A stretch of DNA of 64,000 nt from Patescibacteria group bacterium (GTDB lineage Bacteria > Patescibacteriota > Patescibacteriia > UBA2591 > JAQWAS01): assembly GCA_028707495.1 (NCBI GenBank), contig JAQWAS010000001.1:48382-112381 (forward strand). The letters run 5' to 3'. The first letter of the stretch is position 1, and each line of letters starts with the position of its first letter. Shown here in pieces: positions 7,757-18,260 of this stretch. The notes under the pieces were generated by a model. The model did not search any database. It saw only the letters and a program-made list of their open reading frames with translations, and was not told the origin of the DNA. Both the position numbers and the translations under genes were made by a program.

Positions 7757-8170
7757 GTTAAGAATATAATTGAAGCGTTGATTTACGGGATTGCCACCTG
7801 CCTGCGGCGGGCAGGCGTCGTCGTCTGCCGAGTCGGCAGACTCCTCCTCGCAATGACACATACCTAAAGTGTCATACTGAACTTGTTTCAGCATCTGTTA
7901 GCGCCTAAAATGTTGATTCTTAAAAAATGTTTTTTTTCGACTACAGATCCTGAAATAAATTCAGGATGACAGAATAAATGTCATGCTGAACTCTAGTCCG
8001 CCAAATCGGAGGATGTTTCAGCATCTGTTAACAAAAGAAGTGTTATGCTGAACTTGTTTCAGCATCTGTAGTTGAGTTAAAATTTGTTATTTTAAATAGA
8101 CGTCATGAGTGTTTACAGATCCTGAAATAAATTCAGGATGACAATACAAAAATTCAGGATGACATCGATA
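7757..8170. repeat. hairpin-dense GC-rich repeat mosaic, left copy (core about 7794-7971)
   Basis: About 180-bp core about 97% identical to 17993-18169; contains nested perfect hairpins (gcctgc..gcaggc; ctgccga..tcggcag; atgacac..gtgtcat; atgctgaa..ttcagcat x3; atcctgaa..ttcaggat x2). Confidence 0.8.
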
Positions 8171-8176
8171 ATCAAC

Positions 8177-8210
8177 AAAAAGTGCAATATGTGTGTACAC
8201 ATTACCAATA
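8177..8210. mobile_element. solo IS-end remnant (matches terminus of IS at 51118-51153)
   Basis: caaaaagtgcaatatgtgtgtacacattacc is identical over 31 bp to the transposase-proximal end of the IS481-family element. Confidence 0.45.
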
Positions 8211-8214
8211 TACC

Positions 8215-8243
8215 TTGACAAGAAATTTAATTTATGCTAGTAT
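8215..8243 (+). promoter_or_regulatory. sigma70-type promoter TTGACA-N17-TAGTAT (promoter module copy 1)
   Basis: Consensus -35, 17-bp spacer, -10; same module at 38409, 51167, 52130. Confidence 0.55.
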
Positions 8244-8306
8244 ATAGATAGATAATAATTATGGTTCTTTAATATCATATTTAATTGCGAAAAGAACAGA
8301 CTGTTA

Positions 8307-9062
8307 ATGCGGTTGGTTGGTTATCTGACTGATTGCCTTAGTGGTCTACTCTTTTCGCAATTATTTACAAAACAAATTTTCCTAAAGGAGGAAAAAGTGG
8401 AAGCTAAAAAAATCCTAAGAATCATGATTAAAGTAGCTTTGATCGCTATGATTGCCTTTACTTTGTTTTGGGGTGCTTGGTATTTGATTACCGGTAGCAT
8501 ACCTTCGGTCGAAACTATCAAGATGACGGAAGGCTGGAGTATCATTCTGCCCTTTGCCATTCCGCGCTGGACTGACATTCCCCTAGCCGGCATATTTGCT
8601 TGTTTATTAGTTCTGTTGTTTACTAATAAGGGATGGCACAAGCGTTACGCCGACGAAATCGAATGGGAATATGATTATGTGGTCACTCTGTACGTAGGGT
8701 TTCTTTACGGGATAATTGTCGGGCTGGGTGCTGGGCTAATTTGCAGTGCGTGTGATTTAGGTGCCGGGCTAGGCGTCGGATTACTTTGCGGACTAGCTGT
8801 CGGCCTATTTTGGGGACCAGTTGGCGGGCTAGGCTTCAGCCTAGCTTGTATGCTAGGCATCGGTCTAAATATAGGGTTGTTTTACATGCCAGCCTTGGTT
8901 CCAGTTGCCGGGTTGGGTTTTGGGATAGGTGTCGGGCTAAAATATCTTTTTACTAGAGAATTCTGCAAGAAAATCGGTCATTTTATTGAAGGAGTCTACA
9001 AAAAGATCAGTCGTTTTATTGTAGAATCTAGTAAAAAGATTGGCTCTTGGATAACAAAATAA
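8307..9062 (+). CDS. glycine-zipper membrane protein (GxxxG repeats); alternative start GTG 8397 with strong SD
   Basis: Repeats GAGLGVGLLCGLAVGLFWGPVGGLGFSL; aaaggagg SD 8 nt before in-frame GTG at 8397. Confidence 0.5.
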   Translation: MRLVGYLTDCLSGLLFSQLFTKQIFLKEEKVEAKKILRIMIKVALIAMIAFTLFWGAWYLITGSIPSVETIKMTEGWSIILPFAIPRWTDIPLAGIFACLLVLLFTNKGWHKRYADEIEWEYDYVVTLYVGFLYGIIVGLGAGLICSACDLGAGLGVGLLCGLAVGLFWGPVGGLGFSLACMLGIGLNIGLFYMPALVPVAGLGFGIGVGLKYLFTREFCKKIGHFIEGVYKKISRFIVESSKKIGSWITK

Positions 9063-9072
9063 CAACGATTTT

Positions 9073-15340: not shown

Positions 15341-15392
15341 AATTTTAATAAGTTAATAATTATTAATTAAAAATTTAAATTTATAATATAAA

Positions 15393-17384
15393 TTAATTTT
15401 GATTTTCCGGTGTAGTAAATTGACCTTGTTTTTTAACTGGTTTAAAGCGCCGACCGCCACCTTCCATAAATTTAGGGAAAAATTCAACATATTGCAAGCG
15501 ACCAGAGTGAATAAATGAACCTAAGGCGTTGATGGCTAAATTAAAGATATGCCCACCAATCAAAATTAAAATAGCAATGGGCCAGCCGATAAAAGGAATC
15601 ATATCTTTAAATAACATGGCAATTAAATTAATTACCATGGCAATAATGCCAGTTGCCAAGCCGAGAGCGAGAATACGCGAATATGATAAAACATCGGATA
15701 AATAACCAACCAAGTCATATAAAGAGAGAATGCCTTGAGGAATTTTTAAAAATATATTTTTGGCGCGACGACCTTGAGTTAAAACAACAGCAGCTACACC
15801 AAGATAAACTAAATAAGTTGCTAATTGACTTAAGCTGGCGATTAATCCAACCTTAGTTAACATCCAAAACAAAATACTAAAAATAAAATATAACCAAATT
15901 GCACTGTCAAAAGATTGATCCCAATCTTTATTTTTTAAATTCCAATATAAATTCACAGCAATACCAACAACAACTTGTATAATTCCTAAAATTAACGAAA
16001 CAACTAGCATTTTTAAAGGTTCTTCGACTGGATTGATAATTCTAATTTTTAATAGAAAATTTCTGATTGGTTCTAAGGATGCTGGTAAATTTTCAAGAGT
16101 AATTCCAAACCAGCCACCTAAAATAGCTCCCATGATAAAAGTTGCTACGCCACCATAAATTAATAATTTGAAAAAGCCTCGTTTTTCTTTCGGAGTTTTT
16201 AAAACTTTCATAGCTAGAAAAGAAAATAAAGCTAAAATAATTCCATAGCCAGCATCACTTAAACACAAACCAAAGAAAATAATAAAAAATGGAGCTAAAT
16301 AGGGAGTTGGATCAACTTCGTGAGATTGAGGAGCTCCGTAGATATTAGTGACAGATTCAAAGGGTTGAACAAAGTTGGAATTACGCAAAACAACCGGCGG
16401 AGTTTCATTTTTTTCTAATTCAATTTTGACAATTTCAGTTTCACTTGAAATTTTATTTAATATTTTTTTTAAATTTTCAACGTGGCGACTTTCGATCCAG
16501 GCCGACAAGCCAAAGGTGTGCTGGGTTTTAGTTATTTGACTGTCAATAATCATTTTTTCTTTTTGCCAAAAAAAGTAATCATAAACAATTTTTAAATCAT
16601 CAAGATAGTGACCCAGATCTTGAATTTGATGTAAAATTTCTTGTTGTTTTTTTTCAGCTTGAATAATCTCTTTTTGAAGGTGTTGAATTGTTTCTTTAGG
16701 TTTTTGGTTTGGATAAATTAAATCAGCATGTTGAAAATCAAATTTTTTAAACAGTTCATCAATTTCTTTTTGAAGAGTTTTAAAATAAATAATTAAAATA
16801 TAATTTTCTTTTTCATCTTCTTTAATATTAATAACCTCAATCAGATCTTTATCTTTTTCAATTTCTTGTAAGAATAAGTCAAAATGTTTTTTGTTAATAA
16901 TGCCAATAGTTGAAATTGTTTTTTGAGTATCTTGAATACTTTGTGGTGGATAAATTAAATCTTGCCAAGGTTCTAATATTTTAATTTCACTTTGATATTT
17001 AATAATTAAATTATTGCATTGATTAAGGTTTTCATTTAAATTTTGTGTTTTTTCAACTAAATCTTGGTAGTCAAAACTAGATAAAATTTTATTTATTTTC
17101 GTTTGAGTGATCGGAATTTTAGGATTTAATAGGTTGTTTATTTTTTTCTGCCAGTTTTTTTCTTTGGGCTTATATTGTTCAATAAAATCGACGCCTGATT
17201 TTATTTGAGCTAATTTATAATCTAAATCAGAAATAACTTTATAGCTATATTGATCTTCTTGGTTTTCCAAATCTTTATTCGAAATAATTTCAAGCCAACC
17301 CAATTGATAAATTGTTTCAATAATTTTTTCTTGATGTTCAACGTGTCCGACTAAACATATTTTTTGGATAGGGGAGACAGCCAT
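15393..17384 (-). CDS. atpI: V/A-type ATP synthase subunit I/a
   Basis: 663 aa; soluble coiled-coil N-terminal half plus multi-TM C-terminal half. Confidence 0.85.
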   Translation of the reverse strand: MAVSPIQKICLVGHVEHQEKIIETIYQLGWLEIISNKDLENQEDQYSYKVISDLDYKLAQIKSGVDFIEQYKPKEKNWQKKINNLLNPKIPITQTKINKILSSFDYQDLVEKTQNLNENLNQCNNLIIKYQSEIKILEPWQDLIYPPQSIQDTQKTISTIGIINKKHFDLFLQEIEKDKDLIEVINIKEDEKENYILIIYFKTLQKEIDELFKKFDFQHADLIYPNQKPKETIQHLQKEIIQAEKKQQEILHQIQDLGHYLDDLKIVYDYFFWQKEKMIIDSQITKTQHTFGLSAWIESRHVENLKKILNKISSETEIVKIELEKNETPPVVLRNSNFVQPFESVTNIYGAPQSHEVDPTPYLAPFFIIFFGLCLSDAGYGIILALFSFLAMKVLKTPKEKRGFFKLLIYGGVATFIMGAILGGWFGITLENLPASLEPIRNFLLKIRIINPVEEPLKMLVVSLILGIIQVVVGIAVNLYWNLKNKDWDQSFDSAIWLYFIFSILFWMLTKVGLIASLSQLATYLVYLGVAAVVLTQGRRAKNIFLKIPQGILSLYDLVGYLSDVLSYSRILALGLATGIIAMVINLIAMLFKDMIPFIGWPIAILILIGGHIFNLAINALGSFIHSGRLQYVEFFPKFMEGGGRRFKPVKKQGQFTTPENQN

Positions 17385-17412
17385 ATTTTTATAAAAAAAT
17401 AAAAAATAAATC

Positions 17413-17730
17413 TTAAGACTTATTTAATATATAATCTAAAATTATTTTTTGAGCTTGATTATTTTTTTTCGTATCTAATTTTTCAATTTTTTTAAAATCT
17501 TGTTTAAATTTTTCATCTGCCTGTGTAAGACGAATTTGATTGTTGTTTTTAATATCTTTATTGAGTGCGTCAAAATCGTCTTGAATTTCTTTTTCAAGTT
17601 GATCAATTAAGGTTTCTTGCGCCTGTTTGAATTGGGTTATTTTTTGTTGATTTTGATTTTGAGCTAATTGAATTTTTTCTTGAGCTGTTCGTTCTATTTT
17701 TTTTATTTCATCAATTGGGTTTTGAGTCAT
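17413..17730 (-). CDS. V/A-type ATP synthase subunit G/H (peripheral stalk)
   Basis: 105 aa charged coiled-coil protein, first gene of the operon as in Thermus atpG. Confidence 0.6.
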   Translation of the reverse strand: MTQNPIDEIKKIERTAQEKIQLAQNQNQQKITQFKQAQETLIDQLEKEIQDDFDALNKDIKNNNQIRLTQADEKFKQDFKKIEKLDTKKNNQAQKIILDYILNKS

Positions 17731-17764
17731 ATTCTTTTAAGTCTAAAAATTTAAGAATTTGTTT

Positions 17765-17793
17765 ATTATAAATCTATTTTAAGAAGAAGTCAA
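17765..17793 (-). promoter_or_regulatory. promoter of V-ATPase operon: TTGACT-N17-TATAAT on minus strand
   Basis: Reverse complement reads TTGACTtcttcttaaaatagattTATAAT, about 35 nt upstream of the first start codon. Confidence 0.55.
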
Positions 17794-17835
17794 TTATTTT
17801 TTATGTGGATAAAATAAACATCTCGGCTTTTTTAA

Positions 17836-18260
17836 AAGAGTCATTGCGAGGAATCCCGATTTTTGGGATGACGAAGCAATTTCGTAAAAGAAAACCTTAA
17901 AATTAAGAATACAATTGAAGCGTTGATTTACGGGATTGCTTCGTCGTCGGATTACCTCCTTCTCACAATGACACTTTAGGAACGGGATTGCCACCTGTCT
18001 GCGGCGGGCAGGTGTCGTCGTCTGCCGAGTCGGCAGACTCCTTCTCGCAATGACACATACCTAAAGTGTCATGCTGAACTTGTTTCAGCATCTGTTAGCG
18101 CTTAAAATGTTGATTCTTAAAAAATGTTTTTTTTTCGACTACAGATCCTGAAATAAATTCAGGATGACAATACAAAAATTCAGGATGACAATGGGGTTCT
18201 GGATAACAATACAAAGCATTCCATTGCACGGAACTCTGCTCGCAATGACGCTTGTTTTTT
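17836..18260. repeat. hairpin-dense GC-rich repeat mosaic, right copy (core about 17993-18169, plus a degenerate partial copy 17905-17992)
   Basis: Same modules and order as 7757-8170, direct orientation. Confidence 0.8.

Follow-up and report, generated by a model that had tools for sequence, protein, structure and literature searches.

What are the two hairpin-rich, nearly identical repeats that bracket a V/A-type ATPase operon in a member of the Patescibacteria? The locus lies in a 64,000-nucleotide (nt) stretch of a metagenome-assembled genome (MAG; NCBI GenBank assembly GCA_028707495.1, contig JAQWAS010000001.1, positions 48,382 to 112,381 of the forward strand), referred to here as the window, in whose coordinates positions are given. 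A sequence-only reading of this DNA had left three answers side by side: att-like or recombination borders of an acquired island, a family of elements resembling repetitive extragenic palindromes (REPs) or miniature inverted-repeat transposable elements (MITEs), or a structured noncoding RNA. We consider it highly likely that the repeat mosaics are clusters of nonautonomous, oriented hairpins of the type seen in the Neisseria NTS and in Ssn-related motifs (SRM), members of a dispersed family around a resident ATPase operon. The second answer can thereby be made precise, as NTS/SRM-type hairpins tied to small Ssn-type GIY-YIG genes. The story of an acquired island gives way to a concrete and testable one, that of recognition hairpins of a recently discovered family of nucleases acting on single-stranded DNA (ssDNA).

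The Neisseria NTS has the consensus C-GTC-ATTCCCGCG-MAV-CGCGGGAAT-C-YRG and belongs to the wider class named SRM (Chenal et al., Nat Commun 2025, PMC11893778). SsnA, a 94-amino-acid (aa) single-domain GIY-YIG protein (cd10448), binds the motif only when it is single-stranded and nicks the DNA a few nucleotides to the 5' side; RNA is neither bound nor acted on (PMC11893778). The three bases before the palindrome (GTC) are critical for cutting and the C after it for binding (PMC11893778). The motif is found on both sides of ssn genes (NTS-ssnA-NTS), NTS clusters surround other genes, and NTS-gene-NTS DNA transforms less (PMC11893778). Patescibacteria are unmentioned in that study (PMC11893778).

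Two intergenic clusters of oriented hairpins

The window holds 14 hairpin modules, all of them within two intergenic gaps. They share one oriented architecture: GTC, a palindrome beginning with AT, and C. In type A this reads GTC-AT[G/C]CTGAA-loop-TTCAG[C/G]AT-C-TGT and is present in both orientations, usually as an inverted doublet (GTCAT...ATCTGT, a spacer of about 44 nt, and ACAGAT...ATGAC) that, as ssDNA, folds into one long hairpin (z = -5.3). Type B has the form GTCATTGCGAGG-[variable hairpins]-GA(A/G)GCAATCCC, in short GTCATTGCGAG...GAAGCAATC, and its duplicated core contains two nested GC hairpins. The clusters, the composite repeat that they share, and the modules are as follows.

7746-8164, no strand assigned: left hairpin cluster, intergenic, seven modules as a mosaic
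7746-7971, plus strand: left copy of the composite, consisting of a leader segment, B core (minus), A (plus), 44-nt spacer, and A (minus)
7787-7857, minus strand: B-type module GTCATTGCGAGG...GGCAATCCC with nested GC hairpins CTGCCGAcTCGGCAG and CCTGCC..GGCAGG, GC 0.69
7871-7898, plus strand: A-type module GTCATaCTGAA-CTTGT-TTCAGCATCTGT, one stem mismatch
7943-7970, minus strand: A-type module GTCATCCTGAA-TTTAT-TTCAGGATCTGT, an inverted doublet with 7871-7898 that folds as one long hairpin
7980-8028, plus strand: A-type module with a 26-nt loop insert
8042-8069, plus strand: A-type module with the head variant GTTAT
8115-8163, minus strand: A-type module (8115-8142) and its own-strand 5' half-site GTCATCCTGAA (8153-8163)
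17840-18249, no strand assigned: right hairpin cluster, intergenic, seven modules
17840-17884, plus strand: B-type module GTCATTGCGAGG-[ATCCCGATTTTTGGGAT]-GACGAAGCAAT
17891-18169, plus strand: right copy of the composite, with an extra 52-nt B' module (17932-17972, minus strand) missing from the left copy
17984-18054, minus strand: B core, second copy of 7787-7857
18068-18095, plus strand: A-type module GTCATGCTGAA-CTTGT-TTCAGCATCTGT
18141-18189, minus strand: A-type module (18141-18168) and 5' half-site (18179-18189)
18222-18249, minus strand: degenerate B-type module GTCATTGCGAGCAGAGTTCCGTGCAAT-G, with G rather than C after the palindrome

The A pattern matched the window five times, with 0.00 matches expected from 100 shuffles. 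Scanning the 64 kb for GTC, an AT-palindrome, and C returned matches within the two clusters only, and all complete A modules as well as both B cores fit this description. Two full A modules are preceded, 21 nt upstream, by the 5' half-site GTCATCCTGAA. Several of these hairpins had already been listed by their stems in the sequence-only reading. The three copies of the atcctgaa hairpin are indeed all exact. The count of four was also right for the atgctgaa hairpin, but only two of these are exact, one having a mismatch and one a 26-nt loop insert. What had been taken for a separate hairpin, atgacac..gtgtcat, is no module itself but the head-to-head junction of two (...GCAATGAC / GTCATGCTG...). 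Finally, the modules had been described as far richer in GC than the genome, which is true of the 71-nt B core (0.69) but not of the whole clusters (0.39 and 0.42, versus 0.32 for the window).

Both clusters are outside the predicted transcription units and upstream of promoters. The left one lies 3' of the terminator of the upstream gene (7702-7724) and 5' of a promoter at 8215-8243, and the right one lies between divergent promoters at 17793-17765 (minus strand) and 18270-18298 (plus strand).

A repeat search of the window identified an ungapped core (7785-7937 = 17982-18134) that is 97% identical and in direct orientation. In a gapped alignment the shared unit grows to 7746-7971 versus 17891-18169 (226 and 279 bp); the direct copies and the identity of about 97% reported earlier for a core of about 180 bp therefore stand, but the unit is larger. 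The copies differ by a 52-nt indel (the extra module on the right), a 1-nt indel, and a few substitutions. Relative to a right-type composite, the left cluster lacks one B' module and has in addition one more A module and another doublet, which is diverged. The composites bracket 10.2 kb.

The check for further copies that had been proposed with the sequence-only reading turned up a third one on another contig of the same MAG. A spurious 66-aa open reading frame (ORF) over the left composite has, among 5.8 billion proteins, one homologue besides itself, PHS07_02880 (P0242), which is encoded on a 67,905-bp contig and carries the same locus-tag prefix as the window ORF. Because PHS07_02880 is on a different contig and its sequence follows the right-type layout (A, B core, B'), the composite has at least three copies in the genome, the third more diverged. 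Logan contigs of the same sample match the window exactly, and three of their ends (7794, 18090, and 18161) fall inside the repeats, as expected of dispersed repeats.

Distribution and conservation of the hairpins

We scanned one genome per species with the A pattern and obtained at least 120 loci. The matches came from Treponema, Bacteroidota, Balneolaceae, Ignavibacteriota, Gastranaerophilales, several Patescibacteria, Proteobacteria, Elusimicrobiota, Nitrospirae, Armatimonadota, and others, and the A hairpin was usually followed by an inverted partner. The one stem pair that the search pattern had not fixed was complementary in 127 of 129 copies from many phyla (64 G:C and 63 C:G). Among AT-stem hairpins in 852 kb of loci, the combination of GTC head and C tail occurred 228 times, versus at most 4 times for control heads or tails. 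These counts support selection on the hairpin.

Type B is widespread as well, with at least 120 viral loci. The commonest B-type module in these viral contigs (L331-L450) is GTCATTGCGAGCGAAGCGAAGCAATC, which is frequent in phage-like intergenic DNA and contains GCGAAGC, a very stable DNA mini-hairpin; no GIY-YIG gene was found near the GTCATTGCGAGCGAAGCGAAGCAATC modules in the phage-like contigs. The CCTGCC...GGCAGG mini-hairpin in the B core of the window (7795-7820) also occurs in SRM-type loops of unrelated genomes (WWE3 and others: locus L025, 5580-5627; L107; L177, about 808-873) and may be a second tiny element aimed at hairpin loops. A full-text literature search with the module sequences and their translations returned unrelated primer matches only.

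Small GIY-YIG genes beside the hairpins

All-against-all clustering of the ORFs at 120 A-type loci revealed a recurrent protein of 91 to 108 aa with a GIY-YIG domain (PF01541, the only family above the Pfam cutoff). It is the sole small nuclease-type family that recurs beside the hairpins, the remaining clusters being ordinary cellular genes or a few recurrent uncharacterized ORFs. At L005, L024, L081, L100, and L116, the GIY-YIG ORF is directly beside or between hairpins. Runs of half-sites (GTCATCCTGAAc...) precede the full hairpin beside some of these genes (L024, about 7190-7295; L081, about 5830-5980); likewise, in the window there is a single half-site for each doublet (8153-8163 and 18179-18189).

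As an independent test, we selected 80 metagenome loci by GIY-YIG homology alone. A GTC-A[T/C]-palindrome-C hairpin was present within 400 bp of the gene in 72 of the 80 loci and on both sides in 47. Hairpin density was 4.3 to 5.4 per kb within 200 bp of the gene and at most 0.3 per kb beyond 600 bp. Upstream hairpins were mostly on the plus strand and downstream ones mostly on the minus strand, with heads pointing outward. The stems in these loci (ATGCTG, ATCCTG, and ACCCTG) are those of the window's A type.

We also scanned viral contigs for the canonical NTS and compared the ORFs at these loci with a profile built solely from CTGAA-associated GIY-YIG proteins. Six GIY-YIG ORFs matched the profile (1e-29 to 1e-34); an NTS adjoins or overlaps five of the six, and those at L265 and L290 are flanked on both sides. 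Since ORFs at NTS loci match a profile built from CTGAA-associated proteins, the two sets of GIY-YIG proteins are one family. Against the PDB, the GIY-YIG proteins matched distant UPF0213 proteins only, and NCBIfam gave them no specific name.

The same loci bear on the idea that the modules are REP elements, or bacterial interspersed mosaic elements (BIMEs), serviced by RAYT, a Y1 transposase of the IS200/IS605 type. The inverted doublets, the mosaics, and the intergenic clustering do resemble REPINs and BIMEs. However, the conserved head is GTC(AT) and not GTAG, ORF clustering at the 120 loci yielded no recurrent transposase cluster beside the hairpins, and the association with GIY-YIG genes is strong in the independent 80-locus set. 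We attach hardly any probability to RAYT as the partner enzyme. On spacing, sequence, position, and associated genes, CRISPR arrays, integron attC sites, terminators, and RAYT/REP elements were each rejected as the identity of the modules.

Relation to the published SRM

We compared the modules with SRM architecture using the NTS and NTSvar consensus sequences of PMC11893778. The window modules have GTC, an AT-palindrome, and C; they are multicopy, mostly intergenic, and clustered near genes; and in other genomes hairpins of the A type lie on either side of Ssn-type GIY-YIG genes whose single-domain products have about 94 aa. Several observations weigh against placing the modules with the SRM. 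The published SRM pattern, HGTCWYN(0-2)YYVSBRHN(0-5)WNVSBRGN(0-2)RNCYNB, has 0 matches in the window, and the regular expression that we derived from it does match the NTS and NTSvar consensus. The density of the pattern is 0.251 per kb in NTS loci, 0.001 in A-type loci, and 0.01 in GIY-YIG-selected loci. A GIY-YIG ORF is absent from the 64-kb window. B-type modules have no adjacent GIY-YIG ORF in the 120 viral loci, and their link in the GIY-YIG-selected loci is weak; in the viral loci, an HMM search and all-against-all ORF clustering for a B-type partner gave phage structural genes as the only recurrent genes. The Ssn-type label is a putative one, based on homology to GIY-YIG ORFs near the canonical NTS. 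Moreover, we know of no experimental demonstration, by anyone, that SRM are mobile.

Membership in the SRM fails on the published pattern and holds on architecture and gene association, and we file the A modules as an SRM subfamily that the published pattern does not capture. Since that pattern misses the A-type subfamily, counts of SRM-bearing genomes are underestimated. The hairpin GTCAT[G/C]CTGAA...TTCAG[C/G]ATC is very abundant, nearly invariant across phyla, and tied to Ssn-type genes.

The ATPase operon and the island explanation

The genes between the clusters had been identified from sequence as a nine-gene ATPase operon with its own promoter and one glycine-zipper membrane protein gene, and all three identifications were confirmed:

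9123-17730, minus strand: V/A-type ATPase operon, nine genes in the order G-I-K-E-C-F-A-B-D (Pfam on ORFs)
17793-17765, minus strand: operon promoter TTGACT-N17-TATAAT, between the operon and the right hairpin cluster
8397-9062 (ORF 8307/8397-9062), plus strand: glycine-rich (Gly-zipper) membrane protein gene, convergent with the operon

Pfam assigned subunits D, B, A, F, C/AC39, E, K/c, I, and G to nine minus-strand ORFs, the G match being weak (E = 9e-4). The subunits that define a V/A-type ATPase operon (A, B, D, E, F, C(d), I(a), and K(c), with or without G) are thus found together in one operon.

Could the composites be the borders, formed by att-like sites or by recombination, of an island with this operon that was acquired laterally or can be excised? 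They are direct, about 97% identical, and 10.2 kb apart across the bracket, and the genes that flank the operon in four of its five nearest relatives (MetRS, CvpA, TatD, RmuC, and AddA) are absent from the window. Nevertheless, no integrase, recombinase, transposase, or tRNA was found in or beside the segment, and the features of an integrative island (an integrase or recombinase, a tRNA or att target, foreign composition) are lacking. The operon has a GC content of 0.33 and a third-position GC content (GC3) of 0.22, and its codon usage correlates with that of the other genes at r = 0.93 (random gene sets, 0.95 +/- 0.045). In both composition and codon usage, the operon is native. Subunit A is 100% identical to an NCBI protein labeled "Patescibacteria group bacterium." The best 120 subunit A homologues are 66 to 73% identical, and those with a named source are mostly from Patescibacteria/Parcubacteria or from unclassified "bacterium" MAGs. 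Across Patescibacteria, ATPase operons in this gene order are widespread. In addition, the bracket includes the unrelated convergent gene, a third composite copy is on another contig, and the modules belong to a multiphylum repeat family.

Five relatives (about 72% identity) carry the operon in the identical order, G-I-K-E-C-F-A-B-D. Module scans of their operon loci found no module flanking the operon and one NTS-like hairpin 1.6 kb away in L452. In four of the five (L006, L007, L451, and L452), the operon has MetRS-CvpA-TatD(-RmuC) on one side and an AddA-like helicase on the other; all of these genes are missing from the 64-kb window. Among the conditions that the sequence-only reading named for its refutation were relatives with the operon at the same site without repeats; the absence of repeats was borne out, but the site differs in these four. 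With relatives only about 72% identical, loss of synteny is expected, and the different neighborhood says little. An island bounded by the composites is very unlikely on this evidence: the operon is a resident patescibacterial one, and the repeats are not supported as borders of an acquired segment.

A related possibility is a rearrangement that the clusters mark or brought about: without any dedicated enzyme, recombination between homologous composites would have moved the operon, or would be able to delete or amplify it. The composites offer 150 to 226 bp of near identity in direct orientation, at least three copies are present in the genome, and the neighborhood is unlike that of the relatives. 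The Logan contigs, however, break inside the repeats and contain no deletion or alternative junction, and the relatives are too distant for dating. We regard such a rearrangement as rather improbable, although it is compatible with the explanation that we prefer, a dispersed family of NTS/SRM-type hairpins, and is no true alternative to it.

Structured RNA and transcription signals

The remaining answer from the sequence-only reading, a structured noncoding RNA, and the similar idea of transcription signals at operon borders can be judged by folding and position. The region folds strongly (z = -5.3), and two C-to-T differences within one GC hairpin retain G:T/G:U pairing on the plus strand. 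The covariance search that had been suggested gave no family in Rfam 15 at gathering or permissive thresholds, only weak look-alikes among long-hairpin microRNAs. Modules are in both orientations, the clusters lie beyond the predicted transcription units, and SsnA has no action on RNA (PMC11893778). An RNA or a transcription signal is therefore a most improbable identity for the clusters.

Proposed explanation and implications

For NTS/SRM-type hairpins, we propose the following course of events. The modules would fold whenever the region becomes single-stranded, either during replication or as incoming transforming DNA. The folded modules would then serve as substrates for an Ssn enzyme whose gene lies at another place in the genome or on a coresident element; the predicted substrate of the CTGAA-clade Ssn homologues is ssDNA carrying GTCATGCTGAACTTGTTTCAGCATCTGT. 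Ssn activity may have spread and nested the modules, leading to inverted doublets (REPIN-like) and mosaics (BIME-like) in the two spacers upstream of promoters. The direct repeat of 226 to 279 bp is a composite that was copied recently and comprises three to four modules.

That the clusters bracket the operon is probably incidental. By analogy with the NTS-gene-NTS arrangement in Neisseria, the bracket might at most lower replacement of the segment by transformation. A bolder version holds that the bracketing is functional and that hairpins of the CTGAA and GTCATTGCGAG types are large, cross-phylum classes of Ssn specificity; we think this doubtful. By the same analogy, SRM sites on both strands at each end would expose incoming single-stranded copies of the ATPase genes to the Ssn nuclease. 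Patescibacteria are generally thought to depend on DNA uptake. If this version were true, the bracket would govern whether the operon is replaced or lost, in the manner of the NTS-gene-NTS effect, or, as an alternative function, the clusters would let the 10-kb block move as a unit. The published motif would then miss both specificity classes, and the GTCATTGCGAG class may be served by a new partner enzyme.

There are also practical consequences. Many spurious small ORFs in annotations (MLKQVQHD..., VMLNLFQHL...) are explained by the modules, with which assembly breaks in the Logan contigs of this sample coincide. Alongside Neisseria, the gene-bracketing layout provides another system for asking whether clusters of this kind influence recombination.

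Other features of the locus

The compositional outlier in the bracket is the Gly-zipper gene (8397-9062), not the ATPase operon: its GC content is 0.44 and its GC3 0.43, versus 0.33 and 0.25 in the other genes. A Pfam scan assigned no family to its product. A promoter of its own (8215-8243) precedes the gene, its leader is structured, and a terminator (9075-9095) follows it. The 5' leader (8282-8363) forms a 36-bp hairpin with nine G:U pairs, and RNA folding gives -49.2 kcal/mol (z = -6.9), versus -32.1 kcal/mol for the reverse complement. Another, small hairpin (8377-8395) pairs with the Shine-Dalgarno sequence of the gene. The leader looks like an RNA-level control element, and it has no Rfam family match. 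One Logan contig (L001) ends within the leader hairpin, at 8342, where no repeat visible in the window would explain the break.

An exact 30-mer, AAAAAGTGCAATATGTGTGTACACATTACC, which includes the palindrome TGTGTACACA, is present at both 8177-8206 and 51129-51158. The copies are directly 5' of the -35 boxes of 8397-9062 and 51251-52075, two otherwise unrelated genes, and sit within a wider 76-nt stretch that is 86% identical between the sites. The region may be a shared operator. Furthermore, an extended promoter consensus, cTTGACAAGAAAttaAATTTATGcTAgtAT, that reaches well past both hexamers occurs five times (8204, 28377, 38398, 49623, and 52119). A 2,482-aa ORF (20924-28372) contains an exact 300-nt duplication (24824-25123 = 25712-26011, with a period of 888 nt), at which Logan contig L130 breaks.

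Comparison with known systems

Like attL and attR sites, the composites are direct repeats around a gene block. Here, however, an integrase and a tRNA target are missing, the repeats are built from modules of a dispersed family, and the cargo has native composition. With MITEs such as Correia elements in Neisseria and Nezha in cyanobacteria, the modules have in common that they are small, nonautonomous, bounded by inverted repeats, multicopy, and intergenic. They differ in having no evident target-site duplication or DDE-transposase parent, and each of their termini would itself be a hairpin recognized as ssDNA.

The likeness to REPs, REPINs, and BIMEs lies in short hairpins whose 5' head is conserved, in inverted doublets able to fold into one long hairpin, in intergenic mosaics, and in a presumed partner enzyme acting on single-stranded DNA. 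The head sequence is nonetheless different, and the enzyme class here is GIY-YIG rather than the HUH Y1 transposase of the RAYT systems. In addition, REPs are species specific, whereas the same 28-mer is found here across phyla.

Compared with the NTS and other SRM, the window modules have stems of CTGAA/TTCAG or ATTGC...GCAAT instead of the TCCCGCG/CGCGGGA of the NTS, and the published pattern misses them. The host is a patescibacterial MAG with no ssn gene in the window, and the modules are nested, carry GC mini-hairpins in their loops, and have been copied as a composite of 226 to 279 bp. What they share with the NTS and SRM is the oriented GTC hairpin with an AT-palindrome and C, in multiple intergenic copies clustered on both sides of genes; moreover, hairpins of the same type flank single-domain GIY-YIG genes of about 95 aa on both sides, with their heads pointing outward.

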